A stretch of 34,899 nucleotides of DNA, from positions 1 through 34,899 of the forward strand of contig JBFGZE010000020.1 of the NCBI GenBank assembly GCA_041586955.1, read 5' to 3'. Position 1 is the stretch's first letter; the number at the start of each line of letters is the position of its first letter. Positions 9,334 to 34,075 of this stretch are shown piece after piece. Made by a program: the position numbers and the translations under genes. This DNA comes from Bacteriovoracaceae bacterium (GTDB lineage: Bacteria; Bdellovibrionota; Bacteriovoracia; Bacteriovoracales; Bacteriovoracaceae). A model generated the notes under the pieces. That model did not search any database. It was not told the DNA's origin and worked only from the letters and a program-made list of their open reading frames with translations.

Positions 9334-9368
9334 GAAAAAGTCCTTAATTTTTTTTATTCACGCTGAAT

Positions 9369-9420
9369 CAAAAACTCCCTGCAAAGAACGTTGTGTCCAT
9401 TAACAGGGAGTCATTTTTTT
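9369..9420 (-). terminator. Probable intrinsic terminator of the histone gene, with an unusually long loop
   Basis: 8-bp inverted repeat ACTCCCTG (9374-9381) / CAGGGAGT (9404-9411) with a 22-nt loop. Followed by a T-run on the minus strand and also by a T-run on the plus strand. Confidence 0.65.
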
Positions 9421-9438
9421 AATATTACATTTTCTGTT

Positions 9439-9675
9439 TTAAAAATCTGAAGGGCGAACCGTCTTGCGGCCATTGGCGATACAACGCTCACGTGCCTTTT
9501 CGACTAATTCATGAACAGCTTCATTAAACGCCACGAGAGCATCACCTGAAACATTTAAAGTATTCTTACCTGAACCCTTTAACGCATCTTTTGTTTTAGA
9601 GCCGACCAAAAGCATTTCTACTGATTTTTTTGTAGATTTTTTAGCTATTTTTTTTGTCGCTTTTTTCTTTGCCAT
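9439..9675 (-). CDS. Bacterial histone-fold protein (Bd0055-like singlet) with Lys-rich N-terminal tail
   Basis: 78 aa from ATG 9675 (AAGGAG SD). The core MLLVGSKTK...NVSGDA...LVEKARERCIANGRKTVRPSDF has the histone-fold RKTVxxxD loop2/alpha3 signature and resembles Bdellovibrio Bd0055 (LVVTSKVK...GRKTVMARD, from recall). Confidence 0.88.
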   Translation of the reverse strand: MAKKKATKKIAKKSTKKSVEMLLVGSKTKDALKGSGKNTLNVSGDALVAFNEAVHELVEKARERCIANGRKTVRPSDF

Positions 9676-10061
9676 CTTAAAACTCCTTTTTATGTGATGA
9701 GGTCGCAAAATTCTAGGAACTTCCTGGCCGTCTGTAAAGAGCCTTGGCGCCAAAACTCGTCAGCGTATTTTCAGTACAAATATGATTAGGCCTTTAATCA
9801 GGCGCTACAATATGAATGATATGGAAAAATCTTATTTCGAATTGGTCATTAAAGGGGAAAAGTAGCTCATAGGAATTTTGATAGAAAATCAATAAAAGAC
9901 CAGTTATCTCAATTAAAAAACTTTTACTTTGATTTCCCCCGGGCCATCCGATTTACTTTTTTACTTTTGTAAAGATTGCAAGACTAATCCCGGGGAGTAC
10001 AAAGGCCAAGTTGAACTGGTGTTTCAATACAAATCAGGTCTTTCTACAAAAATACTCTCCA

Positions 10062-15257: not shown

Positions 15258-17636
15258 ATGAATAGCAAAGGTATTATCACGTTGAGCTTAAGCAGTCTTC
15301 TGACGGTGACTCCTGCATCTGTCTTGGCCCAAGAATTTAATAAATTTAAAAGTAAAACCCGTTATAATCAAGGCCAAAAAGGCGCTGCAACTAAATTGCT
15401 TGATAAGGCCGTGAAGGTCGAGCCCTCTGTTCCCGATTCTAACTCGCAAGCAAAAAAAACAAGGCCAGACATTTTTGGTCGAGGAACTGGAATTGCTGAT
15501 TCAAAGGCCGGGGTAAAAGACCCCAAATATGTTCTTCTTAATCCTGAAACGGCCTTTGGCCCAGAGTTAGTGGAAAGTTTTGACTTTCAAAATGCCTCAT
15601 TGGTTGAATTAACCAAATATATGCAAGACTTAACAGGTATCAACCTTATCCTGGATAAAGAGCTAAAAGGTAAAATTTCCATTATGGCGCCCACCCCTAT
15701 TACTGTTGGTGATGCCTGGAAGGCCTTTTTAACTGCCCTTAATATTAACGGCTATACTCTGGTTCGCAGTGGTGCCTTTTATAAAATTGTAAATTCTAGG
15801 GATGTGCGTTATACGCCTACAAAAATCTATACCGGAAATTACACGCCAGACACTGAAAACTATGTAATGCGTGTTATTCCACTCAAAAATATTAACTCCA
15901 CCGAAGTCACAAGAAGTTTCCGTCCTTATATGTCACGTTATGGGCGAATAATTGATATCAAGCAAACCAATACTGTTATTGTGCAGGATACTGGCTCAAA
16001 TATTAACCGTCTCATGCGATTAATTAAGTTTATTGATGTTCCTGGGCATGAAGAATCATTACAAATCATGACCGTTAAATATAGTTCGGCCCAGGAAATT
16101 GCCAAATTATTAGATCAAATTCTTAAAAGTGGTGGTAGTACTGGGAAGTTCCGAGCATCGGGCGGTGGAAAGTCGGGACAAAATATTTCCAAAATTATTG
16201 CTGAGCCTCGAACCAATACTATTATTGCCATGGCCAATGCTTCTGGCGCCAAGCAATTGAGAAAGTTGATTCAACAATTAGATGTCAAATCGGTCGCCAC
16301 CAATGGTGGAAAAATCCATGTTTATTATCTTAATCATGGTGATGCTGAAACTCTCTCAAAAACTCTTTCTTCACTCGTTTCCTCGACCTCCAAGGGTGCA
16401 ACAGGAACTCGCTTTTCGAAAACGGCACCCACCTCTACAGGGCTGTTTTCCGCTGAGGTTAAAATTACCTCTGATAAAGAAAATAATGCTATTGTCGTAA
16501 CCGCCTCCCCCACCGACTACCTGACAATTAAGGATGTTATTGGAAAATTGGATATCGCCCGAGACCAGGTTTATGTCGAAGGCCTAATGATGGAAACTCA
16601 AGTATCAAAGGCCAAGGCCTTTGGTATTTCAGTGATTGGCGCTTATGGTTCGGGTAATGCCCAACGAGCTGGTTTTACTCAAGGTTCAGATGATGGTCTC
16701 TTTGGACTTCTCAATAATCAAATTACTAGCCTCGGTGGCCTTTTTGCTGGAATTGGGATTGGAAAATCAATTGATTTTGATCCCGGAACAGGCAGTACAA
16801 TTAAAATTAATACCATTAATGGTTTGATTACCGCCATTGCCAGTCACGGCCTAACTAATGTCTTAGCGACTCCTCAAATCTTGGCCCTTGATAATGTCGA
16901 GGCGACTTTTGAATCCGGTGAAAGTATTCCAACACCAGAGAGAACGAATGCCGCCAACGGATCTAGTACAGTTGCCCTCAAGCCCCAGAAAGTTGGTCTG
17001 ACTCTTAAAATTACGCCACAGATTAATAAAGTGACTCGTTTTGTAAAACTTAAAATCGATCAAAAGATTCAGGATTTTTCTCAACGGGCGCTCCCGGATG
17101 GTATCAAAAAAGATGGTGTCGCAACTGTTGAGCGAAGTGCTCAGACGACTGTTGTGGTCCGTGACCGAGATACTATCGCCATGGGTGGCCTTATGCGTGA
17201 TAAAGAAATTTCGTCTGTTAGTAAAGTTCCTCTTTTGGGTGATATCCCCATTCTAGGTTGGCTCTTCAAAAATAAAAAGAGTACTATTGAAAAGGTGAAT
17301 CTCTTGTTCTTTCTCACTCCGCGAATTTTGGCCAATTATCAAAAAGAGGTTTCTCATAAGGTTCGAGATGTGCTCAATAGAAGAAATATTCACCTAAAGG
17401 ACGCCATCGGCGAAAGAGATGCCTTTGGGTCCACGGCAAAAGGTCTTTATGATAAGGCCAAGAAACAAGGCGAAGGTCCTCTTTACGATGTTGAGGAAGC
17501 TTCACGTTATAAAAGACAAAATGAAGGACCTGGTATCGGTAATAGAGAAGATGACCAGTCCATGTATGAAATTCCCAACTATAAAGAGATTGAGCAAGAA
17601 GTTCAAAGTCTTCGGTCTGGGATTCAAAAGAAATAG
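15258..17636 (+). CDS. gspD: Type II secretion secretin
   Basis: Signal peptide; N0-N3 domains; secretin motifs NVLATPQILALDN, GLTLKITPQI, SKVPLLGDIPILGWLFK...FLTPRI. Confidence 0.97.
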   Translation: MNSKGIITLSLSSLLTVTPASVLAQEFNKFKSKTRYNQGQKGAATKLLDKAVKVEPSVPDSNSQAKKTRPDIFGRGTGIADSKAGVKDPKYVLLNPETAFGPELVESFDFQNASLVELTKYMQDLTGINLILDKELKGKISIMAPTPITVGDAWKAFLTALNINGYTLVRSGAFYKIVNSRDVRYTPTKIYTGNYTPDTENYVMRVIPLKNINSTEVTRSFRPYMSRYGRIIDIKQTNTVIVQDTGSNINRLMRLIKFIDVPGHEESLQIMTVKYSSAQEIAKLLDQILKSGGSTGKFRASGGGKSGQNISKIIAEPRTNTIIAMANASGAKQLRKLIQQLDVKSVATNGGKIHVYYLNHGDAETLSKTLSSLVSSTSKGATGTRFSKTAPTSTGLFSAEVKITSDKENNAIVVTASPTDYLTIKDVIGKLDIARDQVYVEGLMMETQVSKAKAFGISVIGAYGSGNAQRAGFTQGSDDGLFGLLNNQITSLGGLFAGIGIGKSIDFDPGTGSTIKINTINGLITAIASHGLTNVLATPQILALDNVEATFESGESIPTPERTNAANGSSTVALKPQKVGLTLKITPQINKVTRFVKLKIDQKIQDFSQRALPDGIKKDGVATVERSAQTTVVVRDRDTIAMGGLMRDKEISSVSKVPLLGDIPILGWLFKNKKSTIEKVNLLFFLTPRILANYQKEVSHKVRDVLNRRNIHLKDAIGERDAFGSTAKGLYDKAKKQGEGPLYDVEEASRYKRQNEGPGIGNREDDQSMYEIPNYKEIEQEVQSLRSGIQKK

Positions 17637-17644
17637 GAGTCAGG

Positions 17645-19375
17645 GTGGCAATCTCGGATACGGCCCTTGAGGAATTAGAAGATCAAAAGGTCAAAATTGG
17701 CCAATTATTATTGAAGTATACTTCTCTCACAGAAGAGCAACTCAATGAGGCCCTGGAGATTCAGGCCGAGTCGGGTATGTTAGTCGGTGAAATTCTTCTC
17801 GAAAAAAATTATATTCATCCCCATGACGTGATTAAAGTGCTCTGCCATCAAATCAATATCCCCTATATTCTAGATATTCATATTGATGAAATTGACCCGG
17901 ATATTGTCATGAATATTCCCATCAATTACGCCAAGCAAAATGAGGTGCTCCCTGTCCTCGACACGGACTCGACTCTGACAGTGGTCATTTCAGACCCCTT
18001 TAACTTTAATGCCATCAATGACCTGCAGGAAATTTTTCAAAAAGAAATTAAACTATTGGTCTGCCCTCCCCTTAAAATTAATGATGCAATCAATAGGGTC
18101 TATGAAAAAGGGAATCGCAATCTAGTCGAATCTCTCGAAGAGGAATTTGACGAAAATATGGACCTCGATGGCCCGATCGATATCCTCGATGCCGGCGAGG
18201 ACGACGCCCCAGTTATTCGTTTTGTTCACTCCATCATCTTCAAGGCGGTTAAAGAGGGTGCCTCAGATATTCATATTGAGCCCTATGAACGTGAAACGAT
18301 TTACCGCTTCCGCGTCAATGGTGTCATGTCAGAAGTTCTACGCCAACCGTTAAAAACTCATTCTGCCGTTTCTGCGAGAATAAAGGTTATGGCGAAATTG
18401 GATATTGCCGAAAAGAGGCTACCCCAAGATGGTCGAATCAAGATTAAAATTGCCGGTAAAGATGTTGATATTCGTCTCAATACCGTTCCGGTGCAAACCG
18501 GAGAGCGGGTTGTCATGAGGGTTTTGGAGAAAAGCTCCAAAGTACTCACTTTGGAGAATTTAGGTTTCCATGGCAAGACCTTACATGACCTCGATGAATT
18601 AAGTAAACGCAAACACGGAGTCCTCTATGTCTCTGGCCCAACTGGTTCTGGTAAGACCACTTCCTTATTCGCTATTTTAGAGCGTATTAACGATCCGGAT
18701 AAAATGATTATTACGGTAGAAGATCCAGTGGAATATGAAATTCCTGGCGTCTCACAAATCCAAGTGAATTCTAAGATTAACCTATCTTTTGCCGTCGCTC
18801 TACGCGCCATTGTCCGTCAGGATCCAGATGTCATTATGGTGGGGGAAACACGGGATGGGGAAACGGCTTCGATGGCGATTGAGGCCTCCTTAACTGGTCA
18901 CTTTGTCTTATCCACCATTCACACCAATGATTCATCCTCAGCGCCTGGCCGTTTAATCGATATGGGTATCCAGCCTTTTCTAATCGCTTCCTCACTTGCA
19001 GGGGTTTTGGCCCAGCGACTCGTCCAGACTCTTTGCTCAGAGTGTAAAAAACCCCATCACCTAACAGCTGCAGAATTAAAGGTCTTAGCAATTGAAGAAA
19101 TCCCCAGCGGCTCAATCGTCTACCAGGCAGAGGGTTGTCCCAAATGTAGCTATCGCGGTTATGACTCTCGAACGGTCGTTACCGAATTATTATTAATCAC
19201 CGATGAAATTCGTGAACTCATCTTGAAGAAATCAGATGCGGGAACCATTAAAAAGAAGGCCGTATCTCAAGGTATGACGACTTTGCGTCAAGATGCAGTT
19301 GATAAAGTTCTCCGCGGCATTACCTCACTTGAGGAAGTTTTGCGGGTAATCAACGAAGAAGAAAACCAGGCTTAG
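17645..19375 (+). CDS. gspE: Type II secretion ATPase
   Basis: ASDIHIEP, DIAEKRLPQDGR, Walker A GPTGSGKT, RQDPDVIMVGETRD, TGHFVLSTIHTN, tetra-Cys (CSEC...CPKC). GTG start with AGGAG SD. Confidence 0.97.
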   Translation: MAISDTALEELEDQKVKIGQLLLKYTSLTEEQLNEALEIQAESGMLVGEILLEKNYIHPHDVIKVLCHQINIPYILDIHIDEIDPDIVMNIPINYAKQNEVLPVLDTDSTLTVVISDPFNFNAINDLQEIFQKEIKLLVCPPLKINDAINRVYEKGNRNLVESLEEEFDENMDLDGPIDILDAGEDDAPVIRFVHSIIFKAVKEGASDIHIEPYERETIYRFRVNGVMSEVLRQPLKTHSAVSARIKVMAKLDIAEKRLPQDGRIKIKIAGKDVDIRLNTVPVQTGERVVMRVLEKSSKVLTLENLGFHGKTLHDLDELSKRKHGVLYVSGPTGSGKTTSLFAILERINDPDKMIITVEDPVEYEIPGVSQIQVNSKINLSFAVALRAIVRQDPDVIMVGETRDGETASMAIEASLTGHFVLSTIHTNDSSSAPGRLIDMGIQPFLIASSLAGVLAQRLVQTLCSECKKPHHLTAAELKVLAIEEIPSGSIVYQAEGCPKCSYRGYDSRTVVTELLLITDEIRELILKKSDAGTIKKKAVSQGMTTLRQDAVDKVLRGITSLEEVLRVINEEENQA

Positions 19376-19383
19376 GATAAAAT

Positions 19384-20598
19384 ATGGCGATCTATACTTA
19401 CAAAGGGATCGATAAAACAGGTAAAGAACTTAAGGCCAATATCAATAGTGAATCTATTAATATGGCCAAGCAAAAACTACGCGCTCAAGGGATTATGCTC
19501 CTGGAAATCAAGGAGAATAAAACCGATAAGGCCGGCCAACAAAAGGGCTCTATTAGCTTTGGCGCCTCCGTTAACATTGAAGACCTCTCCCTGATGACTC
19601 GCCAATTGGCGACACTCGTGCGCGCCAAAATACAAATCGTCGATGCTCTCGCCGCTTTAATGGATCAAACAGAAAATGCTAAATTACGCCTCATTTTGTC
19701 AGAAGTGCGGCAGAAGGTGAATGAAGGGATTAGCTTGGCGAAGGCCTTCTCTGATTACCCCAAAGTCTTTAATAATGTTTATGTCAATATGGTGGAGGCG
19801 GGTGAACAATCAGGTAACCTGGAAATTGTTCTTTTACGCTTGGCCGATTTTACTCAGGCGCAGACCCAATTAAAAAATAAGATTAAGGGTGCTGTCACCT
19901 ACCCTGTTATTATGGCGCTTGTCGGTATGATTATGTTTGGCATCATCTTTACTGTGGTCATTCCCAAAATTACTAAAATTTTTGTCTCTATGAAAAAAGA
20001 CATCCCCTTACCGACCCAAATTTGCATTTGGATCAGTTATGTCATTCAAAATTATTGGTATCTCATCATCGGCGGTGCAATAGGTGCTTTTCTTATTTTT
20101 TATAAATGGATCCATACCCCTAAAGGAGAGGCGAAATGGCATGCCTTCCTCCTTAAAGTTCCCATTATAGGCCCTTTGGTGATGATGATTAACGTCAGCC
20201 GGTTCTGCTCGACTTTAGGGACCCTTCTCAACTCGGGAGTGCCCATTCTCACCTCATTAAAAATTGTGAAAAATTTGATTGCCAATGTTCATATGCAAAG
20301 AGCAGTCGAAGAAGCGCGGACTTTTGTGCAAGAGGGGGCCTCTATGGCGGTACCGCTCAAGAATTCAGGTTTATTCCCTCCCATGGTCATTCATATGATT
20401 ACACTCGGAGAAAAAGCGGGTGAAATGGAAGATATGTTAAAGATTGTGTCAGAGAATTATGAGGATCAAGTCAATACTAAACTTACTGGCTTGACTTCAG
20501 TCATCGAACCCATAATGATGGTAGTTATGGGTGGTCTAGTAGGTTTTGTCGTTTTTGCTGTTGTGGTTCCCATGATGGAGTTGAACTCTGTTAACTGA
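19384..20598 (+). CDS. gspF: Type II secretion inner-membrane platform protein
   Basis: TRQLATL, GEQSGNLE, YP, GEKAGEME and IEP motifs; 3 TMs. Confidence 0.96.
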   Translation: MAIYTYKGIDKTGKELKANINSESINMAKQKLRAQGIMLLEIKENKTDKAGQQKGSISFGASVNIEDLSLMTRQLATLVRAKIQIVDALAALMDQTENAKLRLILSEVRQKVNEGISLAKAFSDYPKVFNNVYVNMVEAGEQSGNLEIVLLRLADFTQAQTQLKNKIKGAVTYPVIMALVGMIMFGIIFTVVIPKITKIFVSMKKDIPLPTQICIWISYVIQNYWYLIIGGAIGAFLIFYKWIHTPKGEAKWHAFLLKVPIIGPLVMMINVSRFCSTLGTLLNSGVPILTSLKIVKNLIANVHMQRAVEEARTFVQEGASMAVPLKNSGLFPPMVIHMITLGEKAGEMEDMLKIVSENYEDQVNTKLTGLTSVIEPIMMVVMGGLVGFVVFAVVVPMMELNSVN

Positions 20599-20637
20599 TA
20601 ATGATAAACTACGTAAAAATTAATTGAGGAGTTTTGT

Positions 20638-21105
20638 ATGAAAAAATTGAGTTTCTTTCTGCGTGCCAATCGTCAGGTAATGGCCGGCCAAGCAGGTTTT
20701 TCCCTAATGGAAATCCTTATATCTCTCACCCTTTTAGGGATTGTCGGTACCTTTGTCACGGGTAAAGTTTTAGAGCAACTACACGAAGGTAAAGTGAAGG
20801 CCGCTCATATTCAGATGAAAAATTTTGAAGGTCGGCTCAAAGAATTTAAAAGAAAGTGTGGATTCTTTCCTGCGACAGAGCAAGGACTTGACTCCCTTAT
20901 CAATAAGCCTACAGGTGGCCGTGAATGCCGAAATTACCCACCAAATGGCTTCATCGATGGAGAGCAAGTGCCTAAAGACCCATGGGATGAAGATTATATC
21001 TATGTTTTTGAGGGCAAAAACTTTAATATTATCAGCTACGGTGCCGACAATGTTGAAGGTGGTGAAGGTGAAGACCAGGATCTATCTCTTAGGGGCAATA
21101 AATAA
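20638..21105 (+). CDS. gspG: Major pseudopilin
   Basis: Prepilin site AG|FSLME; PATEQGL, PKDPW and SYGADNVEGGEGED motifs. Confidence 0.95.
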   Translation: MKKLSFFLRANRQVMAGQAGFSLMEILISLTLLGIVGTFVTGKVLEQLHEGKVKAAHIQMKNFEGRLKEFKRKCGFFPATEQGLDSLINKPTGGRECRNYPPNGFIDGEQVPKDPWDEDYIYVFEGKNFNIISYGADNVEGGEGEDQDLSLRGNK

Positions 21106-21108
21106 AAC

Positions 21109-21792
21109 ATGAAGTTCAAAGGCATGGATTCTGACCAAGAAGGCTTTTCATTAATAGAAATCCTTATTGGGCTTCTTTTGGTTGGACTCATTTTGTCTAC
21201 ATTAAATTTTGGTGGGAGTAGTGGTAGTCGCCGTTCTCTTGACCAATTTCTCAAAAAAATAGAACGTGGAGTGCGTTTTTCAATTGATGAAGCAGCATTG
21301 CGTAATTCAATAGTCCGCCTCCACTTTGACCTCGATAAAAATCCTCAATCTCTCGTCGTTGAATTTGGCCCCAACGATAATTTTATTTTGCCGATTGATA
21401 TCGTCACGAAAAAAGGCGGTAGTCTATCAGAAGAGAAAAAAAGACAAGACGGTCTCAAAAAGCTAAATAATCAATTTTCTAAGGTTAAAGAATTCCAAGA
21501 AAAGTCCTTTGAAGTTCCCCCTGGAGTCAGAATTATTGGCGTGGGAACCTCCCTCACTAATCAATTCCAAACAGAGGGACATGCTGCTGTGTATGTCTAC
21601 CCCACAGGGGAGAAAGATGATGCTATAATTATCTTGGGAACTGATGATGAGGTCGCCGGCCTTAAAATTGAAGCCTATAACCTTGACATGGAGCGTTTCT
21701 ATGAAGAAATAGAGGCCCAAAATGTTGAGGAAGATATAGAGGCCTATGAAACCAAGGCCATAGGATTATTTGAGGAATGGTTACAAAAATAA
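21109..21792 (+). CDS. gspH: Minor pseudopilin, GspH position
   Basis: Prepilin site EG|FSLIE plus hydrophobic helix; assigned by operon order. Confidence 0.75.
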   Translation: MKFKGMDSDQEGFSLIEILIGLLLVGLILSTLNFGGSSGSRRSLDQFLKKIERGVRFSIDEAALRNSIVRLHFDLDKNPQSLVVEFGPNDNFILPIDIVTKKGGSLSEEKKRQDGLKKLNNQFSKVKEFQEKSFEVPPGVRIIGVGTSLTNQFQTEGHAAVYVYPTGEKDDAIIILGTDDEVAGLKIEAYNLDMERFYEEIEAQNVEEDIEAYETKAIGLFEEWLQK

Positions 21793-22295
21793 AACTCATT
21801 CACCAATTAAAAGCAGCTCAAGGCTTCTCTCTGATTGAAGTGATGATCGCCATTGCCATTTTTGCAGTATTTGTCGTGAGTTTTATGACCGGACAAGGTT
21901 TTAATTTATTAGACTCTACCCAAATGAGAGAAGATTCAAAATTAGAGCAATTGGCGCAAATGAAGTTTAATGAAATCATCGTCGACCCTCCTCCCTTTCG
22001 AGAATCTCTGACCTCGGCCAGCAAGGAAACCAAACCATTTGAGGAAGATCCCGGATTCACATGGACCACAGAATTAACGAAATTTACCATTCCCGATCTA
22101 ATGGCCTTAACTTCCTCTCAGGATGAAGACCCCGACCCCATCCAGGCGAGAATATTTGAGCAATTTAAAAAGAATATGGAAAAAATGTTATGGCAGATGA
22201 AATTGACGGTCACCAATAAGGAAACGGGTCAAGAGTATGTGGTCTCTGGTTGGCTGTATAACCCCAAAGCGAAGGTGCAAATCCAAGGTCTATGA
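21777..22295 (+). CDS. gspI: Minor pseudopilin, GspI position
   Basis: Prepilin site QG|FSLIEVMIAIAIFA; operon order. Confidence 0.78.
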   Translation: MVTKIKLIHQLKAAQGFSLIEVMIAIAIFAVFVVSFMTGQGFNLLDSTQMREDSKLEQLAQMKFNEIIVDPPPFRESLTSASKETKPFEEDPGFTWTTELTKFTIPDLMALTSSQDEDPDPIQARIFEQFKKNMEKMLWQMKLTVTNKETGQEYVVSGWLYNPKAKVQIQGL

Positions 22296-23197
22296 AAAAA
22301 GAAAATGAAAGCGGATTTACTCTCCTTGAAATTATCATTGCGATGACGGTGCTTTCTTTTTTAATGGCGTTCCTTTATACCATTGTCGATGACTCAACTC
22401 GCACTAAAAATGATGTCATTAGTGAAGACCAGGATTTTCTCCAAGTCCAAACGGCCTTGCATCGCATGAATTTGGACTTTTCACAGATTTACTCTCCTCT
22501 TTATCATAGTGTTGATCATGAATTCTATGAAGAATATGACTCCGAAGAAGATGTCCCTATAGATGAATTAGAGCAACGTCAAAAAACAAAGTACAAGGGC
22601 ACCCCTAATTTTCCTTTGGCCTCTATAAAAGGTGTTCCCGCCCCAATAATTCTCCAAGAAGATAAAACCCATATCCAATTTTTCACCACGGCCAATAGAC
22701 GACGGTTGGCCAACTCTAAACAATCTCAATTTACTTGGGTCGACTATTCTCTGGAAAGTATGGGGGAAAAAGAAAATAAAGATGAAACTGACCTACGCCA
22801 AGGCCTCTCCCAGCTAGTGAGACGAGTCATTAATGAAAATGTTTTTGCTGATGAATTCGACTGGACTAAGATTAAACCCCAAATTATCTTAAAAAATATT
22901 AAATCTATCGAGTATCACTTCTGGCATCATAAAAGGAAAAAATTTGTCGATACTCTTAATTCTCTTGAGGAGTTTGAACAATATACTCCTCGCGCTGTTA
23001 AAATTAAAATTTTATGGGTCAACAAAACGAATCAAGATCAAGAAACCATTCGCGTTTTCCGCCCCCTCTTTCCCTACTTTGATCCCGTTAAGGATGAATT
23101 ACGTCGTAATCCCCCGTCAGGAAGGCCTATCGAAAGTGAAGAGGGTGAAATAATAGTATCCGAGGAAGAGGGCGATTTTGAAGATGGAGAAGAATAA
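22292..23197 (+). CDS. gspJ: Minor pseudopilin, GspJ position
   Basis: Prepilin site SG|FTLLE; C-terminal PRAVKIKI; ATGA overlap with gspI. Confidence 0.8.
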   Translation: MKKENESGFTLLEIIIAMTVLSFLMAFLYTIVDDSTRTKNDVISEDQDFLQVQTALHRMNLDFSQIYSPLYHSVDHEFYEEYDSEEDVPIDELEQRQKTKYKGTPNFPLASIKGVPAPIILQEDKTHIQFFTTANRRRLANSKQSQFTWVDYSLESMGEKENKDETDLRQGLSQLVRRVINENVFADEFDWTKIKPQIILKNIKSIEYHFWHHKRKKFVDTLNSLEEFEQYTPRAVKIKILWVNKTNQDQETIRVFRPLFPYFDPVKDELRRNPPSGRPIESEEGEIIVSEEEGDFEDGEE

Positions 23198-23198
23198 A

Positions 23199-24599
23199 AT
23201 GAAAAAATTCTTATCTGCCCCTCGGATTTTAAAAAATGAACGCGGAATGGCGATCATTATGGTGGTAGGTGTTGTCACCATTTTGACCTTTTTATTGGCA
23301 GATTTTACCTTTGATACAAAACTCAATAAAATTAAAATATATAATTATCAAGACAAACTACAGGCACGCCTCAATGCAGAGTCAGGCCTCAATTTTGCCC
23401 TCTCCAAATTAAAACTCTACCAAAATGCCCGTAATTTATTGGAAAAAAATACAAGTGCTCAATCGGTACTCGATCTCTCAAAGCTGGAATCAATTGTCAC
23501 CAACCCGCCGTTTATTATTCCCATTACTCTCCCCAGCAATTCCAATCTTATTCAAAAATCCGCGCTCGAAGATTTTACCAAAAACAATATTCTCCCAGGG
23601 CAATTATCCGTTTTTATCTCCCCTGTCCGTGGCTTTCTCAACCCAAACAATATGCGTATCCCCAAAAAGGAAAAAAAGAAAAACGATTTGGGGAATCAGG
23701 AGGCTTCCAAAGAAGAGGAGGCCGCCCAAAAGAGTAATATCATCAGAGATGCCGATGGCAATGAAGTCCCTGCTCACGCCTATATTGAAAATAAACTGAT
23801 TGAAGATTTAGAAAAGGCGATTGAGCGAAAAAAGGAACATGATGAGGACTTTGATGCCACTTACCCCAATATCGAGGCAAAGTATCTAATCAAAGAGTTA
23901 AAGTACTATGTCTCCCATAAAAACTCTTTTGAAGACGATTTAAAAGACGATATTGTGCGTGCTTTTGCCGACAAAAATATCATACCTAAGCATGGCCCCC
24001 TTACCTCAATTTACGAACTCTACACCCTCCCCTCCTGGGATGATCAAATTGTTGACCTAATTAAAGACCGTATCTCTGTTCATGAGGCGGCGATCATCCA
24101 AGTCAACGAGATCACCTCCAATCAACTGAAGACGCTATTCCCCAATATTACTCCTGAACAATTGGAAGAGTTTTTCAATTACCGCGATGGTAATAACGAA
24201 TTAAAAATGAAACCCCATAAATTCAAAAATGAAGAGGACTTTAAAAATGTCATTGTGGGAACCTTAGGAGTGGTCGGTGAAGAAAGTTACCGCGACCGTA
24301 TCAAGGAATTTGAAGCGGCCGGTCTAAAAATTGGCGTCGCGAGTAAGCTCTATAAAGTAACTTCCGTTGGCAAAATTAACCGCTCCGAGTACCGCATCGT
24401 TGCATTTATTGACCTCCCCATTAAGCCGCCCAAAAAGGTCAAGAAAAAGGCCAAACAGAGTAATGCCGACAAAGAAAGCGATAAAAAGGAAAATGAAACG
24501 GATAAAGCTAAAGAAGAACCATCAACTAATGACGACAAAAAAAAGAAAACTAAAATTGAATTGATGGAACCCCGAGTAATTGAAGTTCGACTTGAATGA
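23199..24599 (+). CDS. gspK: Minor pseudopilin K
   Basis: ERG|MAIIMV without Glu+5 (GspK hallmark); QARLNAESG. ATG 23199 with GGAG SD chosen over TTG 23178 and ATG 23184. Confidence 0.82.
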   Translation: MKKFLSAPRILKNERGMAIIMVVGVVTILTFLLADFTFDTKLNKIKIYNYQDKLQARLNAESGLNFALSKLKLYQNARNLLEKNTSAQSVLDLSKLESIVTNPPFIIPITLPSNSNLIQKSALEDFTKNNILPGQLSVFISPVRGFLNPNNMRIPKKEKKKNDLGNQEASKEEEAAQKSNIIRDADGNEVPAHAYIENKLIEDLEKAIERKKEHDEDFDATYPNIEAKYLIKELKYYVSHKNSFEDDLKDDIVRAFADKNIIPKHGPLTSIYELYTLPSWDDQIVDLIKDRISVHEAAIIQVNEITSNQLKTLFPNITPEQLEEFFNYRDGNNELKMKPHKFKNEEDFKNVIVGTLGVVGEESYRDRIKEFEAAGLKIGVASKLYKVTSVGKINRSEYRIVAFIDLPIKPPKKVKKKAKQSNADKESDKKENETDKAKEEPSTNDDKKKKTKIELMEPRVIEVRLE

Positions 24600-24613
24600 T
24601 TTGTGAAATAATA

Positions 24614-24649
24614 TTGGCCCCCACCGCCTGATCTGGTAAAATAATACTA
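24614..24649 (+). promoter_or_regulatory. Putative internal extended -10 promoter giving a leaderless gspL transcript
   Basis: TTGGCC-N17-TAAAAT with a TGn extension; the -10 ends 6 nt before the ATG; no SD. Confidence 0.6.
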
Positions 24650-26226
24650 TGAATTTGTTGTGTATTGACCTTGGCTCTTATTCAGTTAAATTTGCTGAGT
24701 ATTCATTGGCCAGAAAAAATATTGTTCTCATCCAATTCCAAGAATTGTCTCTGGCCGAAGCCCGGATGCAATTTGACGAGGACATTTCAAATAATCAATT
24801 AAAATTAGAAATTGTCAGGGCGTTTATTAAAGACCATGGCAGTGATCTAAAAGTAATTTTTCAAGTTCCCAATGAAATGATCACTGCTCGCTTTCTCCAT
24901 TTGCCTGTCATACAGAGGAAAAAAGTCGAGGCGATGATTCCATTCCAATTGGATGATAACCTACCCTTTCCCCTTGAAAAAATCATATACCGCTTTACCT
25001 TAGAAAAAGAGGGTAAAGGTAGTTTTGCTCAAGTCGCCATTGCTGAAAGAGAGGCCTTTGCCAAATTTTTTGGCCTTCTTGATACAAAGCAATGCATGCC
25101 CTCACTATTAACGACTGAATTAAGTATAAATAATTCATTTGTGAATGAACGAGCGGATCATTCATCCTATCTTATCATCGACCTTGGGCACTCTTTAACC
25201 AAAGGCTATGCGGTTGAAGAAAAGCGCATTGTTGCCAACCATCTATCTCATACCGCCTCTAGACAGATCGACACCATCATTGCCAAAACCTATGGTATTT
25301 CCAACCAAGAAGCGGTTAATTATAAGCATGAGCAGGCCTTTATTTTCACCGAATCTCAATATGAGGATGCTGATGGCGAGCAGGCGGAATTTTCCCTCTT
25401 AATGAAGCAAACCCTTGCGCCTTTGGTTTTAGATATAAGGCGATGGATCATTGGCCATCGCGCCAAATTTGGTAACCCTATTTTAAAAATTTATCTCACC
25501 GGTGGTGGCTCCAAATTAAATAATATCATCCCTTTTCTCTCCGAAGAACTTAGTATTAATATCGAGAGACTCGAGCTTAATCACGGTCAATTGCGGGCGG
25601 ACAACGAATTCAGCCAAGATCCCTCTTATCATTTTTGTTATACTCAGGCCTTGGCACAGAATGCCACAATTCGCCCCCTCAACTTTTTAACAGGTGAATT
25701 CTCTTCTCGCTCAAACCAGGGATTCCCGCTCTATTCCACGGGATTTTTATTGGTGCGAACCAGTATCCTGGCCGCTAGTATCGTTTTCTTATTATTATTA
25801 CAAAATATGATTATCAGTGGATCCACTAAAAAGCTCACCAAAAAACTCGCCACGATGAGTAAAAATCCCAATTTAAAATTAACCAGGTCCGATAAGAATA
25901 AATTAAGACGCAAGCCCGATCTTTTTCTTAAAGTTTTACAAAAAAAGAATAAAGACCTCAATTCTCATATTAAGCAATTAAAAGCACTCGGTAAAGTTAA
26001 TGCCGTTGAAACTCTTTTTAAGCTCAATAGTTTGGTGAGTGGTAGTGATAATTATTTTTTACAGAAATTCGTTTCAGAACAAGGCCTCACGACTGCCACT
26101 TTTAGCGGCAATCAAATCGACCAATTGGAAAGTCTCAAAACGGTTCTCGATGGGCTGACTCTTAATAATAAGGGTCTCGAGCTCAACCGCAAGTCAAAAA
26201 CAATTCAATTGGTATTTGAGGAGTAG
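24649..26226 (+). CDS. gspL: GspL, with PilM-like actin-fold cytoplasmic domain, TM and periplasmic domain
   Basis: IDLGSYSVK, IIDLGHS and LTGGGSKL motifs; TM near aa 365-390; position after gspK. Confidence 0.82.
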   Translation: MNLLCIDLGSYSVKFAEYSLARKNIVLIQFQELSLAEARMQFDEDISNNQLKLEIVRAFIKDHGSDLKVIFQVPNEMITARFLHLPVIQRKKVEAMIPFQLDDNLPFPLEKIIYRFTLEKEGKGSFAQVAIAEREAFAKFFGLLDTKQCMPSLLTTELSINNSFVNERADHSSYLIIDLGHSLTKGYAVEEKRIVANHLSHTASRQIDTIIAKTYGISNQEAVNYKHEQAFIFTESQYEDADGEQAEFSLLMKQTLAPLVLDIRRWIIGHRAKFGNPILKIYLTGGGSKLNNIIPFLSEELSINIERLELNHGQLRADNEFSQDPSYHFCYTQALAQNATIRPLNFLTGEFSSRSNQGFPLYSTGFLLVRTSILAASIVFLLLLQNMIISGSTKKLTKKLATMSKNPNLKLTRSDKNKLRRKPDLFLKVLQKKNKDLNSHIKQLKALGKVNAVETLFKLNSLVSGSDNYFLQKFVSEQGLTTATFSGNQIDQLESLKTVLDGLTLNNKGLELNRKSKTIQLVFEE

Positions 26227-26228
26227 CC

Positions 26229-26858
26229 ATGCAACAAATCATCAAATTATTCAAATCAATTGATGAATTTGTCTTTAGCAAATTAGATCAATTGCAAAAC
26301 TCCAACCCTTATCAAAGCTTTTTTGCGACCATTGAAAGTAATCTCGATGAGCAAAGCCGTTTAATTGTGGAAAAGATCTTAGCGATTGTCTTGGTCTTTT
26401 TACCACTCTTAATCGCTCTTGTTTTTCTTCTTTTAAACTTAAATGTAAGAGGAAAAAGAGAAACCCAATTAGAGATACTCAAGCATATGAAAGAATATAC
26501 TCAAAACTATTCTCTCTATAGCGCCTTAAGCTCAAGGATGAAGTCCGCACATCCCATTTCAAATAAAAACGACCTTAAAGCACGAATCACCCAAAGCTTA
26601 AACCGCAAGAATATTAATGCCACGGCGATCTCTATTGGTGAAATTCAAACCCAAGACCTGACTTCTAGCTTATCTCAAAGTAGCGGTGCTCTTAAATTCT
26701 CTGGTTTATCTACGCAAGCGCTAAGTGGTTTAATGGAGATCTTAGTCTCAGAACTCAGAATCAAAATTCATAAAATTCATATTACCAATAAATTGGTGGA
26801 AAGCACTCTCAATGGAAGGATTGATTTCTACCATTTTGGTACTGAAAGGAATAAATAA
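26229..26858 (+). CDS. gspM: Probable GspM (bitopic membrane protein)
   Basis: Single TM, coiled coil and small C-terminal domain; lies between gspL and gspN. Assigned mainly by synteny. Confidence 0.65.
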   Translation: MQQIIKLFKSIDEFVFSKLDQLQNSNPYQSFFATIESNLDEQSRLIVEKILAIVLVFLPLLIALVFLLLNLNVRGKRETQLEILKHMKEYTQNYSLYSALSSRMKSAHPISNKNDLKARITQSLNRKNINATAISIGEIQTQDLTSSLSQSSGALKFSGLSTQALSGLMEILVSELRIKIHKIHITNKLVESTLNGRIDFYHFGTERNK

Positions 26859-26861
26859 ACG

Positions 26862-27785
26862 ATGACAAAGAAAGCATCAGCCCTCAGAGAAAATCAAATT
26901 GATGATTCTATCTATACTCCGGTGGCAAAAAATTCCTTTCGCTATACTATAATTATTTGCAGCTTTCTTCTTATCGGCTTTCTCTCCTCTTTCCCCATTA
27001 AAGAAGTTCTCAAATTTAAAATCGCCCAGCTAATCAATCAAAATAATGCCTGTCCTATTTCCTATAAAGATTTGGACCTAAGTTTATTAATGCCAGAACT
27101 CACGCTTAAAAGTCCTATTATTGCCGGCAGCTGTTTTGGTAAGCCCTCGGCCCAGATTGCTTTTAAATCGCTTATTATTGCTCCCAGACCTCACCTTTCC
27201 CCACTGGGAATTAAGCTTAATATTCGCGGTGATGGCAGTGGTATCAAATTACGAGCATTTCCCCTAATTAGTAGTGATGTCGTCCGCCTTGCACTCAAGG
27301 ACACAATCATTAATGTTGAAAAGATCAAGGATATTATTAATATGCCCATAAAAATGGTGGGTGACGTCAAAGTTGATATTATCAACGCAGTTTTAAAAAA
27401 TGGCAAAATCACCCGTGGCCAATTTAAAATTGAATCCAATAATTTTGACATTAATGGCCAAAAAGTCCGTGGCCTCATCCTTCCTGCCTTTAATCTTAAA
27501 GGGATGAGTCTTAAGGCCGAATTAGTCGATAGTAAAAAGCTCATGATTAATCGTTTAGAACTTGGCAACAAAAAGTCGGATGTCTTCGTTCAATTAGAGG
27601 GTAATATTGCACTTCATCAAAATATGGCCGAAAGTAGACTCAACCTCCAAGGCAAGATCGGCCTAAGTTCTCAATTTGAGGAAAAAGTTCCTTTAATGCC
27701 TCTTTTACTCCCAGGAAAGAAACCTGTTGATGGTGCTTATGTTGTTAAAATCCAGGGAAAAATAGGAAAACCTCAATTCCAATAA
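26862..27785 (+). CDS. gspN: Probable GspN
   Basis: N-terminal TM ending in SFP, beta-rich body, C-terminal IQGKIGKPQF; last gsp gene. Confidence 0.72.
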   Translation: MTKKASALRENQIDDSIYTPVAKNSFRYTIIICSFLLIGFLSSFPIKEVLKFKIAQLINQNNACPISYKDLDLSLLMPELTLKSPIIAGSCFGKPSAQIAFKSLIIAPRPHLSPLGIKLNIRGDGSGIKLRAFPLISSDVVRLALKDTIINVEKIKDIINMPIKMVGDVKVDIINAVLKNGKITRGQFKIESNNFDINGQKVRGLILPAFNLKGMSLKAELVDSKKLMINRLELGNKKSDVFVQLEGNIALHQNMAESRLNLQGKIGLSSQFEEKVPLMPLLLPGKKPVDGAYVVKIQGKIGKPQFQ

Positions 27786-27803: not shown

Positions 27804-28778
27804 ATGCCCGTCATGAAAGCAACGGCGACAAAAATAGAACCCCCAAAATATCAAGAGATCTTTGACCAGGCCTTGGCCCATTATTTGGCATTGGCCTGTC
27901 CCAAAGATTTCGCCTATGAAATGTATAGCTACGCTGTGCTCCCGGCCGGCAAATTATTCCGCCCCAGTTTAGCTCTGGCCATGGCCTTAGATAAGGGCCT
28001 TGATGCAACCACCATTCATCGTGACCATCCCTTAATAAAGGCCTGCTGCGCCCTTGAAATACACCACGCCTATACCTTGGTCCATGACGATCTTCCCTGC
28101 ATGGATGATGACGATATCCGCCGTGGTCGGCCCAGTCACCATAAAAAATTCAATGAATGGATGGCGGTACTAAGTGGTGATGGCCTATTGAATTTAAGCT
28201 ATGGCCTTCTTGCCGACTTACCGCCACAGGCATTGCCTCATTATTTAAAATACTTCTCTCATTGCCTTGGCCCGAAAGGCCTTATTCACGGCCAAGTCCT
28301 CGATCTAAAAGGGGCCAATCAATCCCATTCGATGGCGCATTGGGCGCGTATTCACCAATTAAAAACATCACGCTTAATTCAGGTATCCTTAATCTTAGGA
28401 CAAATTTTTGCGACGACAAGGCCCAGCTTCAATGAGCTCAAACTTACTCATCGCTTTGGCGCCAATTTGGGTTTAGTTTTTCAATTTGTGGATGACCTTA
28501 TTGAATTGGCCGAAGACCAGGTGCAAGGCCATGAATTAGAGATTAACCCCTGGATCATCTCACCCGATCGAACTCTCGCCTTCACACTTTCTAAACTTGA
28601 AAAGGTGATTGAAGAGTTAGGCCAAAGCCAATATTTAAAGGGAGTCATCGATCAATACTTCATTAAAATGAAATTAATTATCGATTCTGGTGAGGAAAGA
28701 ATTCAATCTTTTATGCCTGACCAAAGGAAATTAGAGATCAAGCCATTGGTGGCGCTCTTGGATCTCAGTGGTCAATGA
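27804..28778 (+). CDS. ispA: Short-chain polyprenyl diphosphate synthase (IspA-like)
   Basis: GKLFRP, FARM DDLPCMDDDDIRRG, GQVLD, KT, and second motif FQFVDDLIE. Tyr at -5 before the FARM suggests a short-chain product. Confidence 0.88.
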   Translation: MPVMKATATKIEPPKYQEIFDQALAHYLALACPKDFAYEMYSYAVLPAGKLFRPSLALAMALDKGLDATTIHRDHPLIKACCALEIHHAYTLVHDDLPCMDDDDIRRGRPSHHKKFNEWMAVLSGDGLLNLSYGLLADLPPQALPHYLKYFSHCLGPKGLIHGQVLDLKGANQSHSMAHWARIHQLKTSRLIQVSLILGQIFATTRPSFNELKLTHRFGANLGLVFQFVDDLIELAEDQVQGHELEINPWIISPDRTLAFTLSKLEKVIEELGQSQYLKGVIDQYFIKMKLIIDSGEERIQSFMPDQRKLEIKPLVALLDLSGQ

Positions 28779-29174
28779 CATTAAGGTTTGAAGGTCCTTT
28801 TTGGCCATCTCTAACTTATTGAGATCATCACGACTTAGACCTTGCCTAATGATTTGCGGTAAGGAGTTAATTTCCTCTTCGTCATCATCATTATCCAAGT
28901 GGCCATAATTTTCATTGGCCGATAATAAAATTTTTATATCGGCCTTGGCCTTTTCAATATTAAGTTTATCTTCAAATAATAATTTTTTAATGACAGCAAC
29001 GGCCTCGATATCTTTATGTTCATAAAGCTTTTGGCCACTCGAAGAAGTGATAGGGTTAACCTCATCAAATTCTGCTTCCCAAAACCGTAGTACATACGGT
29101 TTTACTCCCGTTAAAGAACAAACTTCATTTAACTTAAAAAGAGATTTATTGGGGATTTCAATAAGACTGGCCAT
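28731..29174 (-). CDS. MerR-family HTH protein of the ihfA-associated type
   Basis: IPNKSLFKLNEVCSLTGVKPYVLRFWEAEF, typical of the MerR gene that follows ihfA. Confidence 0.9.
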   Translation of the reverse strand: MASLIEIPNKSLFKLNEVCSLTGVKPYVLRFWEAEFDEVNPITSSSGQKLYEHKDIEAVAVIKKLLFEDKLNIEKAKADIKILLSANENYGHLDNDDDEEEINSLPQIIRQGLSRDDLNKLEMAKKDLQTLMSLTTEIQERHQWLDL

Positions 29175-29689: not shown

Positions 29690-31126
29690 CTAAGATTTTA
29701 TGCGTCTTTTCTTAGTTTTTTTGCCAGGTTTTTGAATCTTTTTAAATAATTGATCTGTTTCCCTGTCTTTTTGCTTGAGCCAATCAGTCATATACTCTTT
29801 AACTTCCATCAACTCTTCAATCAATTTCTTAGACACTAACTTTTGAGAGCCAGCAACCTTTTTATATTCTTTTAATTTAATCGAATCTTCTTTGACCATC
29901 AGTTTACGTTTCGCTACTTCCTCTTTAGTCATGCGATAAATAGGCATATCAGCGAGATAATCACTGAAGAAATATTTTTTCTTAAGCAAGTACTCTACAT
30001 ACGACTTACGATTCTTTTGCTTAGTAGCGGCTTCATATTCTTTGTTTTTAATGAATTTGATAATTTCATTATTTTGGCGAATTTTAGTCTCAAATTCCTT
30101 GCAGAGGAGCTCATAGCGGCGAAGGACAACCTGTAATCGCTGCTCAGTAAAAATCTCAATAATTTGCTCTGGCCGATCAAAAATCCTCACACCCCGCTCT
30201 GAAATAAGGGTGTAATTAGGAGATAATGAAGCACTCGTCCCCATAACCTTTTCAACTTCAGCAAGAGTTGGGGTTTGGCCACGCTTAAAAATTAATTCAA
30301 TCCGGACATTATTATTAACTGTCGAGTCAATATAATCCTTTAGAAAATCAGCTTCTATATGCTTATTAAGAAAACGATAGGTCTTGGTTCCATCATAGCC
30401 TTTGGGCAATTCAATAATATAGATCTTGCCGTCTTTTTCCTCAAACTTCATCGGAAAAAGATAACGGCCACGATCCGCTTCAATCTTGGCCGTATAATTA
30501 TGAACATAAGGTTTTAACTTTTTGGCCTTTTTTGTTTTAACGTATTCGATCATTGAATCACAGATGTCTTTATGATGAAAACTTGGAATCATAGAAGAAA
30601 AACCTGTTCCAATTCCTTCCGCACCATTGAGTAACATCAACGGGAGCTTTGGCAATAAGGCCGCAGGCTCAACAACTGTTTCATCATAATTGGGGATCAT
30701 CTCAACTTGGTTCATATCATCAAAAAGAATAAAATTAGTCATCTTCGATAATTTACATTCAATGTATCGACCAGCTGCAGGAGATGTTTCCATCCGTTCG
30801 CCAAAATACCCTTTCTTTTCGATAAGTGGGTAATTATTAGCAAAGGTATAATCCTGGGCCATATTAACAATGGCAGTCTCAATAGAAGCAGGACCGTGGG
30901 GGTGTAAGGTTAAAACTAAACCTGTTGCTGCGGAAACTTTAACTAACCCTTTACTTTGATTTTTATAGAGGGTGAAAAGAATTCGCCTTTGCCCGGGTTT
31001 CAGGCCATCTTGCAAATACGGAATCGCCCGATCCATAAGAGTATAAATTTGATAAATACGGTACTCCTCTCGCACAATTTGATCGAGAGGGACAGTCTCA
31101 AGAGAATGAAGATAAGTCTCTTGCAT
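29690..31126 (-). CDS. Atypical type IIA topoisomerase A subunit (breakage-reunion domain only, no CTD pinwheel)
   Basis: DRAIPYLQDGLKPGQRRIL, HPHG, MAQ, catalytic AAGRY, LLNGAEGIGTG; only 478 aa. Confidence 0.92.
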   Translation of the reverse strand: MQETYLHSLETVPLDQIVREEYRIYQIYTLMDRAIPYLQDGLKPGQRRILFTLYKNQSKGLVKVSAATGLVLTLHPHGPASIETAIVNMAQDYTFANNYPLIEKKGYFGERMETSPAAGRYIECKLSKMTNFILFDDMNQVEMIPNYDETVVEPAALLPKLPLMLLNGAEGIGTGFSSMIPSFHHKDICDSMIEYVKTKKAKKLKPYVHNYTAKIEADRGRYLFPMKFEEKDGKIYIIELPKGYDGTKTYRFLNKHIEADFLKDYIDSTVNNNVRIELIFKRGQTPTLAEVEKVMGTSASLSPNYTLISERGVRIFDRPEQIIEIFTEQRLQVVLRRYELLCKEFETKIRQNNEIIKFIKNKEYEAATKQKNRKSYVEYLLKKKYFFSDYLADMPIYRMTKEEVAKRKLMVKEDSIKLKEYKKVAGSQKLVSKKLIEELMEVKEYMTDWLKQKDRETDQLFKKIQKPGKKTKKRRIKS

Positions 31127-33296: not shown

Positions 33297-33395
33297 AGAA
33301 ACTTCCCAGTCAAAGTTTGATTTGTTATTTTTGAAGGGACCATATAAATGTCTAAAATCAAGATTAAAGGGCCATTGGATTGGTGAAAAGGCGCA

Positions 33396-34010
33396 ATGCA
33401 AAAAATACAATACTTTCTATTTATCAGTTTTTTCCCCTATTTACACCTCTCGGCAGGGGTTATTACCCCCTCCACCAAGGCCTTTGAGAGATTTGGTCCC
33501 GAGGCGAATCAGGCCATCTTGAGTGGTGAAATTTTTATTAATACACAAGTAAAAGACTTCGCTCAAAGCAAAGGACCTAAACAACAAACCCTTAATTTTC
33601 GCATTGGCGGCCTACATCCTCGCAATTGCCAGTCCGCGTTACGAAAGTTATCACAATACGAGAATTTCTCCAGATGGATTGGGTTTATTGATAAAAGTAC
33701 TTATGATGAAAAAAAGCAAAGGCCGACCTTCCATCTCAAAAGTAACCTCCTACCCTTTAATATGACCCTTGATTTTCATTTGCCCCGCATCCGGCAACCT
33801 GGTGTTTATGAGTTTCAATTTGACCGGGGGTTTTTATCAGGACTCAAGGGAAAAATCTATGTTCACTCTCATAAAAAGCGCTGCTTTTTTGAAAGTGAGG
33901 CCTATTGGCGTGGTCCCCACTCCAGTATCCCGAGCTCTGTTTTTGAATTCTTCTCTGATGCACTAGGTCGTCTCGCAATGGAAAACCTCTTCCGTATTTC
34001 ACGCTCTTAA
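33396..34010 (+). CDS. Exported hypothetical protein, possibly SRPBCC-like fold
   Basis: 204-aa ORF with a signal-peptide-like N-terminus. LSQYENFSRWIGFI, GFLSGLKG and a C-terminal IP helix loosely resemble SRPBCC; fold call is weak. Confidence 0.65.
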   Translation: MQKIQYFLFISFFPYLHLSAGVITPSTKAFERFGPEANQAILSGEIFINTQVKDFAQSKGPKQQTLNFRIGGLHPRNCQSALRKLSQYENFSRWIGFIDKSTYDEKKQRPTFHLKSNLLPFNMTLDFHLPRIRQPGVYEFQFDRGFLSGLKGKIYVHSHKKRCFFESEAYWRGPHSSIPSSVFEFFSDALGRLAMENLFRISRS

Positions 34011-34075
34011 CAATAATGACAAAGGATGAGGGCCCATGTATAAGCTGCTTATATCGTTTTATACTCGGGAGGATT

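Follow-up and report, generated by a model that had tools for sequence, protein, structure and literature searches.

A face-to-face-type histone with a lysine-rich N-terminal tail encoded in a Bacteriovoracaceae genome

Bacterial histones have been recognised only recently, and two of them, HBb (Bd0055) of Bdellovibrio bacteriovorus (PDB 8CMP, 8FVX, 9EZZ) and HLp of Leptospira perolatii (PDB 9QT0/9QT1/9QT2), are characterised structurally and biochemically; neither has a real tail. The gene described here encodes a histone with a basic, 20-residue N-terminal tail. It lies in a stretch of 34,899 nucleotides (nt), referred to below as the window, that covers positions 1 to 34,899 of contig JBFGZE010000020.1 of a Bacteriovoracaceae bacterium (phylum Bdellovibrionota; assembly GCA_041586955.1).

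Schwab et al. 2024 (PMC11390915) divide the alpha3-truncated histones, which are marked by an alpha3 helix of 3–4 residues and a shortened alpha2, into face-to-face (FtF) tetramers and 'bacterial dimers'. The FtF type is marked by logo positions R48, N52, R54, T56 and D61 and is present in the Bdellovibrionota class Bacteriovoracia; in the description given there, dimers of the Bd0055/HBb type are without R48 and N52. HLp is a ring tetramer with about 60 bp of DNA wrapped around it and an interface of R49, S52 and N53 against R55, T61 and F63; 52% of its DNA-binding energy comes from R59, K21, K15, S14 and K17 (PMC12701072). Tails have been noted before: according to Hocher et al. 2023 'most' bacterial singlets are without long ones, and Schwab et al. 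report basic N-terminal tails without conserved sequence on bacterial FtF histones, which they term 'H3-like'. Hocher and Warnecke 2024 (PMC10919886) describe histone tails as 'easy come, easy go', Lys-rich ones being easily gained, with independent origins, from AT-rich upstream sequence, and give Leptospira histones and mycobacterial HupB as examples.

Histone fold and face-to-face signature

The histone gene is on the minus strand and encodes 78 aa, starting from the ATG at 9675 (Table 1). In a six-frame profile search of the 406 open reading frames (ORFs) of the window it is the sole ORF with a histone fold (E 8.7e-35; runner-up E 4.3). Residues 19–78 find their best phmmer match in the PDB in HLp (9QT0, E 1.3e-6), followed by Bd0055/HBb (8CMP, 6.4e-4; 8FVX, 7.3e-4) and archaeal HTkC (9F2C, 0.016). 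An AlphaFold2 (AF2) model built on 83 relatives has a mean predicted local distance difference test score (pLDDT) of 80.8, with 84–95 over the core, where it shows alpha1 (25–33), loop 1 (34–43), alpha2 (44–67), loop 2 (68–74) and a one-turn alpha3 (75–77). When this model is compared with the PDB by Foldseek, the best match is again HLp (9qt1_A; target-normalised template modelling (TM) score 0.90, root-mean-square deviation 1.5 Å, 39–41% identity), with HTkC at 0.89 and HBb at 0.78–0.82 and 36% identity. The top nine matches are all HLp, HBb or HTkC chains, and eukaryotic histones and NF-Y come after them with TM below 0.5. By both AF2 and Foldseek the protein has the three helices, shortened alpha2 and short alpha3 of the alpha3-truncated family, and the histone-fold core that the original prediction had recognised in these residues is borne out.

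Residues R64, N68, R70, T72 and D77 occupy FtF logo positions 48, 52, 54, 56 and 61. The RxTxxxxD motif of loop 2, the RD clamp, reads R70-K71-T72-V73-R74-P75-S76-D77 within a C-terminus that ends GRKTVRPSDF. Among 83 aligned relatives N68, R70, T72 and D77 do not vary, and at least 90% keep R64. The two tetramerisation positions hold R/K-x3-N in 234 of 257 collected relatives (218 with R, 16 with K), the remainder being mostly truncated or frameshifted entries. In the phmmer alignment the HLp interface residues map to R64, A67 and N68 and to R70, S76 and F78, and all five of the top DNA-binding residues of HLp are identical in the window histone (R74, K33, K27, S26, K29); the PDB chain numbering of HLp is the paper's numbering +2, an offset inferred from residue-identity matching. 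Because R64 and N68 are present, relatives conserve both, and the interface and DNA-contact residues of HLp are matched, we therefore file the window histone as FtF. The Bd0055-type assignment made at first is not supported, given R64 and N68 and the better match to HLp than to HBb in both E-value and TM score.

With HLp the protein shares the alpha3-truncated fold, the R-x3-N-x-R residues, the C-terminal D-F and the five top DNA-binding residues (PMC12701072). It differs in a loop 1 that is 3 residues longer, in overall sequence (identity about 40%) and above all at the N-terminus, where HLp has only about 7 unstructured residues, invisible in the crystals, against a tail of 20 residues with a net charge of +9.

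The N-terminal tail and its variation

Residues 2–18 of the tail read AKKKATKKIAKKSTKKS. The nine Lys in the first 17 residues are as first reported, and the Ser/Thr number four; residues 1–19 include no acidic residue, and the composition of the tail is K, A, T and S. The AF2 model has pLDDT 53 over residues 1–10 and 56 over residues 11–20, and secondary structure is absent before residue 25. The description of the tail as eukaryote-like is apt for its charge and disorder and not for its sequence, which has no Arg or Gly and to which nothing in the N-terminal part of the Pfam Histone profile aligns: the weak match (E 0.026) spans profile positions 47–114, with nothing aligned to 1–46. Chance does not account for so much lysine: at a Lys content of 8.6% over the 10,870 residues of 28 window ORFs, 0.035 stretches of 17 residues with at least 9 Lys are expected, and two window proteins, the histone and a topoisomerase subunit, contain such a stretch.

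Of 54 bases of tail DNA 35 are A. The runs of A (6, 8, 6 and 7 long; 9622..9672, minus strand) are potentially prone to slippage in replication or transcription, and a shift of the reading frame at these runs would destroy the protein or alter the length of the tail.

The pattern of variation between loci indicates that the tail is almost certainly translated. Where related loci have identical or nearly identical cores, all 7 runs of tail insertions or deletions are multiples of 3 (12, 3, 9, 57, 3, 48 nt etc.), and 464 residues of family tails include no Asp or Glu at all; together these argue for selection on the peptide. Ten tailed relatives have Val (GTT) at the position of Met21 and hence no internal start, and the N-termini of relatives open M-A-K-K-K. 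Initiation at Met21 appears unlikely.

Basic tails are common in the FtF family and have already been noted there; the window gene is a further clear example, and the novelty at first attached to its tail was overstated. The census behind this statement covers species-representative genomes and protein collections, and most of the kept loci are from metagenome-assembled genomes (MAGs). A word-indexed search gave 167 relatives (120 listed, 114 parsed), and among those listed 63 of 114 have at least 10 residues before the core and 57 at least 15; the net charge is +4 or more in 58 of the 63. Representatives at 50% identity number 137 with E up to 1e-3, and of the 81 parsed, a set that likely includes mis-called starts and doublets, 52 have at least 10 residues before the core, 32 of these being strongly basic. 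A scan of the genomes with a 25-sequence alignment yielded 484 encoding stretches; from these the 80 best were retained and 79 parsed (L061 being left out). Counted up to the Met21 position, the N-terminal segment of these loci has between 5 and 38 residues: at least 12 in 23 of the 79 and at most 9 in 54. Twenty-two tails, the 464 residues mentioned above, consist of K (48.5%), A (28.0%), T (10.8%), S (4.3%), R (4.3%) and P (2.2%). They are K/A-rich, repeat-like extensions of variable length on a DNA-binding fold, conserved in composition and not in sequence. Schwab et al. describe the same phenomenon and name Bacteriovoracia as a host clade, but the tails seen here, built of K, A, T and S with almost no Arg or Gly, differ from what their label 'H3-like' suggests (PMC11390915).

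The most H1-like tail in the set is that of P0148, with 51 residues and three near-identical AAKTTKKAPAKK-type repeats. Of the 137 representatives (proteins P0121–P0246), 26, with lengths of 97–204 aa, match the query in two stretches and are doublet histones with two FtF-like folds per chain. Doublets have been described in papers on Bacteriovorax chromatin and on a Peredibacter genome, neither of which deals with tails.

The cores by themselves give a maximum-likelihood tree (80 rows, 60 columns) that is poorly resolved in detail. It contains a robust clade, B (46 rows, support 100/96), with ...IRPYDILA-type C-termini and K-rich N-termini, in which 21 members are tailed, 22 have a short KKK stub and 3 are tailless; 29 of the other 34 rows are tailless. 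The tail state requires at least 13 changes on the 80-row tree, against a mean of 37.1 when states are shuffled. Within the best 80 of 484 loci the nearest to the window histone are from Bdellovibrionota MAGs, and it groups with L001, L002 and L003 (99/88), the first of which is tailed while the other two have only a KK/KKK stub. With midpoint rooting this group sits with the tailless clade; with outgroup rooting it falls outside a grouping of the tailless clade and clade B (78/88, not starred), and its union with clade B is not rejected (approximately unbiased test, p-AU 0.39). In the 20-member protein subgroup that contains the window histone, three segments have at least 12 residues (window 21, P0002 17, P0015 17), 16 have 7–9 and one member is truncated. 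The window tail is thus the longest of its subgroup, and it looks like a recent expansion; its A-rich DNA with runs of A fits growth driven by slippage. The labile pattern fits the argument of Hocher and Warnecke (PMC10919886). Labile length, constrained composition and in-frame repeat changes, taken together, support the 'easy come, easy go' view of tail origin and argue against relics shared with eukaryotes.

Relatives 60–75% identical to the window histone also occur in MAGs labelled Omnitrophota, Gemmatimonadota and Lysobacterales (L012, L013, L017, L019, L020, L022, L026–L030, L032, L036, L048, L049, L068, L080), and the Gemmatimonadota copies have a GTG start and G+C-rich surroundings. 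These copies point to horizontal transfer or mis-binning.

A proposed polycationic arm and the alternatives to it

The reading that we consider likely is that of a monocistronic, alpha3-truncated FtF histone whose translated, disordered tail acts as a non-specific polycationic DNA arm. By homology to HLp, core residues 21–78 would form a dimer by the histone handshake, and two dimers would close into a ring tetramer via R64/N68/R70 and the C-terminal S76-D77-F78. DNA, about 60 bp of it in HLp, would wrap the exterior of the ring non-specifically through S26, K27, K29, K33, R74 and the RKT loop. The predicted exit point of the tail is a few residues ahead of the DNA contact at the 'paired ends of helices' (G25-S26-K27), so that the tail would emerge at the DNA surface. 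Counts of net charge give about +2 for the core and +9 for the tail; a tetramer, at about +8 from its cores, would reach about +44 with its four tails. Such an arm could act independently of DNA sequence by neutralising phosphates, stabilising the wrap and reaching neighbouring duplexes, with bridging and compaction as the result; an H1-like compaction is plausible by analogy. Its length is a fast-evolving, tunable property, altered by in-frame expansion and contraction of AAA/AAG-GCN-ACN repeats, with no conserved motif. As a compact tailed FtF example, the window gene is suited to probing what a tail does to wrapping, bridging and compaction.

Comparable extensions exist on unrelated folds. 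The N-terminal tail of HU in Deinococcus radiodurans makes low-affinity, multivalent DNA contacts that align DNA, and it resembles the PAKKA repeats of mycobacterial HupB/Hlp and Ku in being a K/A-rich disordered extension that adds low-affinity, multivalent or bridging contacts; in the accounts of them considered here, many of the HU/Ku tails are C-terminal and Pro-rich, whereas Pro makes up only 2.2% of the tails described above. The topoisomerase B-like subunit encoded in the window has a tail of the same type as the histone, which supports a generic role for such tails. Tails of Asgard archaeal and eukaryotic core histones are likewise disordered, basic and N-terminal to the histone fold, but no homology with the tails seen here is detectable.

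Several points weigh against this reading. Both Pfam matches of the protein are below the gathering score (CBFD_NFYB_HMF 18.1 vs 21.4 bits; Histone 15.2 vs 26.4 bits), and an NCBIfam search with it gave no match. At the HLp interface S52 is replaced by Ala in the window histone and T61, conservatively, by Ser. The tetramer is predicted from conserved interface residues only. A Shine-Dalgarno (SD)-like motif lies upstream of the codon that opens an M-A/S-K N-terminus in 78 of 79 loci, but the start codons of the relatives were chosen by a rule that favours SD motifs, so this count carries no independent weight. Literature searches turned up no experiments on the tail of a bacterial histone, and the role proposed for the tail is for that reason an analogy only. 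Finally, removal of a comparable tail from Ku of Mycobacterium smegmatis raised its DNA affinity, as that work is cited here, which means that a basic tail need not simply strengthen binding.

Some genomes encode two of these histones. Among the best 80 of the 484 loci, 12 of 67 assemblies have two loci, and all 12 combine a tailed copy (14–31 residues, net +5 to +14) with a tailless one (5–8 residues, net −2 to 0). One of these pairs holds the closest relative of the window histone, the tailed L001, which shares its assembly with the tailless L052. Tailless copies have conserved neighbours, namely DUF374, DUF2288, DUF1499, a Crp-like regulator and a cyclic nucleotide monophosphate (cNMP)-binding protein, in 18–21 loci (e.g. 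L039, 330..4826), none of them chromatin-related. Clustering of flanking genes over the 80 loci revealed no conserved neighbour for the tailed genes; the single cluster enriched in tailed loci proved to be an antisense shadow ORF of the histone gene itself and not a neighbour. The pairing may be new, as tailed/tailless paralog pairs are not mentioned in the literature consulted, and the word 'paralog' occurs 0 times in the main text of Schwab et al. (PMC11390915), a count that leaves aside the supplementary figures. If general, it would offer a tractable bacterial model for histone variants.

We regard it as a speculative possibility that Bacteriovoracia-like predators possess a two-variant histone system, in which a tailless FtF histone and a tailed one, with an arm tuned by repeat slippage from 3 to nearly 40 residues, form mixed tetramers. 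Compaction of the nucleoid would then be graded, e.g. between attack and growth phase, by how many tails the mixed tetramers give each particle, and the system would be an independently evolved bacterial equivalent of histone variants and of compaction like that by linker histones. The window gene would supply the tailed histone of a lineage whose subgroup mostly keeps a KKK stub. An unlikely alternative to the polycationic arm builds on the same pairs: the tail may serve mainly for partner choice, disfavouring tailed homodimers and driving the tailed histone into mixed dimers or tetramers with a tailless one whose gene lies elsewhere in the genome. The consistent pairing in two-locus assemblies, L001/L052 included, favours such a role, and modelling cited in a review has tails bias eukaryotic H2A towards heterodimers (PMC10919886). 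However, the profile search finds no tailless paralog in the 35 kb of the window, the pairing is seen among the best 80 of 484 matching loci only, and genomes with a single type also occur among the 80 loci, though these bins may be incomplete.

It is somewhat less probable still that the tail is a regulatory platform of the eukaryotic style, on which acetylation of Lys and phosphorylation of Ser/Thr switch compaction. The 9 Lys and 4 Ser/Thr of the disordered tail offer sites for this, and a GNAT acetyltransferase gene is present in the window. That gene is, however, 24 kb from the histone and has no match to a specific family (best NCBIfam score 25 bits vs a cut-off of 194), and in the 80 related loci the histone gene has no recurrent neighbour that is an acetyltransferase, deacetylase or kinase. 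Eukaryotic core-histone tails have conserved sequence and defined modification sites. The bacterial tails, unlike these, vary even between near-identical cores, and conservation of composition only fits bulk charge better than site-specific marks. The gene neighbourhood, in the window and in the 80 related loci, gives no support to the phase separation or the control by acetylation or phosphorylation that had been suggested.

A Bd0055/HBb-type histone that merely gained a tail, stays dimeric and bends or coats DNA is very improbable. HBb is a significant match in both phmmer and Foldseek, and the two proteins are alpha3-truncated singlets of the same phylum with an RKT loop and an RD clamp. 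HBb, a dimer that bends or coats DNA, nevertheless lacks the tetramerisation R and N (Bd0055 has Ser and Asp at the R64 and N68 positions in the phmmer alignment), is essentially tailless, and is a weaker match than the tetramers HLp and HTkC. The window histone has the equivalents of R48 and N52, which its relatives conserve and which the bacterial dimers are described as lacking (PMC11390915), and truncated or frameshifted entries aside, none of the 257 collected relatives has the Bd0055-like pattern.

That the tail is not made, a start at Met21 giving a tailless 58-aa histone or both forms coming from one mRNA, is a reading we all but discard: Met21 is conserved in close relatives, the database entries P0031 and P0101 begin at its position, and a longer annotated form of HLp was judged wrong on Shine-Dalgarno grounds (PMC12701072), but here a strong SD precedes ATG 9675, the 20 nt upstream of the Met21 codon contain no GGAG, GAGG or AGGA, and the in-frame indels, the absence of acidic residues and the ten Val codons speak for the longer form.

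Transcription unit and genomic surroundings

The polycationic-arm reading includes a gene that is transcribed by itself, and the histone unit does look monocistronic, given its own terminator-like hairpin and a next gene, on the same strand, that starts at 9333 (Table 1). A fold as stable as the hairpin arises in only 1 of 200 shuffled sequences; a simple terminator scan had overlooked it because its loop exceeds 8 nt. The promoter-like site upstream is a consensus match only, since the region holds 2 such sites against 2.2 expected in shuffles. The program-made ORF list gives a 104-aa frame from TTG 9753, which adds 26 aa upstream of the histone ATG. That start is probably untranscribed, because the promoter-like site sits within the extension. 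In these respects the original prediction of a 78-aa protein with a strong SD, its own terminator and a spurious upstream extension agrees with what was found. Rfam and tRNA scans of the window gave no matches.

Table 1. Coordinates of the histone gene, its parts and other features in the window, with the two-locus pairs among related loci
Feature	Position	Strand	Basis or remark
Coding sequence, 78-aa histone	9439..9675	−	ATG to TAA 9441..9439
N-terminal tail, residues 1–20	9616..9675	−	9 Lys, net +9 before E20, predicted disordered
Histone-fold core, residues 21–78	9442..9615	−	AF2, Foldseek, phmmer
FtF signature R64-x3-N68-x-R70-x-T72-x4-D77 (tetramerisation residues and RxTxxxxD motif/RD clamp)	9445..9486	−	Motif definition of PMC11390915, PMC12701072
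SD AAAGGAG, 7 nt upstream of ATG 9675	9683..9689	−	Sequence motif
Promoter-like TTTACA (9738..9733), 17-nt spacer, TAGAAT (9715..9710)	9710..9738	−	10/12 consensus
Intrinsic-terminator-like hairpin, 10-bp stem, then U run	9367..9412	−	−22.4 kcal/mol, z −3.6
Type II secretion set	15258..27785	+	Complete-looking
Type II secretion ATPase	17645..19372		
MerR-family regulator	28731..29174	−	
IHF-alpha homologue, 135 aa	29186..29593	−	138 bits vs cut-off 111 (NCBIfam)
Topoisomerase A-like subunit	29690..31126	−	478 aa
Topoisomerase B-like subunit	31149..33410	−	753 aa
GNAT acetyltransferase	34016..34513		
Two-locus pairs	L001/L052, L018/L067, L021/L059, L023/L039, L024/L040, L025/L065, L031/L043, L034/L044, L035/L051, L037/L073, L042/L075, L074/L062		

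The genes on either side of the histone gene encode a 235-aa protein that matches nothing in Pfam and an FG-GAP/ASPIC protein, neither of them chromatin-related. In a comparison of synteny with L001–L003 and L052, the roughly 3 kb to each side share nothing apart from the histone gene, so that the neighbourhood offers no clue to function. The G+C content is 35–44%, and the host is taken to be an uncultured Bdellovibrionota member with relatives in Bacteriovoracaceae and Halobacteriovoraceae.

The window also encodes a homologue of IHF-alpha, so that the histone is not the sole nucleoid protein. This homologue has an acidic C-terminal extension of ∼40 residues, rich in Ser, Asp and Glu and thus of a charge opposite to that of the histone tail, and the MerR-family regulator gene lies directly downstream of it. 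A further feature of the window is a divergent type IIA topoisomerase pair. Its GyrB/ParE-like subunit, which scores far below every NCBIfam cut-off, ends in a Lys-rich K/A/T/V tail of ∼55 residues, of the histone-tail type, with 11 Lys in one 17-residue stretch. The A-like subunit is short and contains the breakage-reunion domain only, with a basic C-terminal stretch.

The type II secretion set comprises the secretin GspD, the ATPase GspE, GspF, the major pseudopilin GspG, minor pseudopilins and a PilM-like protein. Among named relatives the best matches to its ATPase come from Bacteriovoracaceae, Halobacteriovoraceae, Oligoflexia-labelled and Bdellovibrionales MAGs, with a top identity of 78%.

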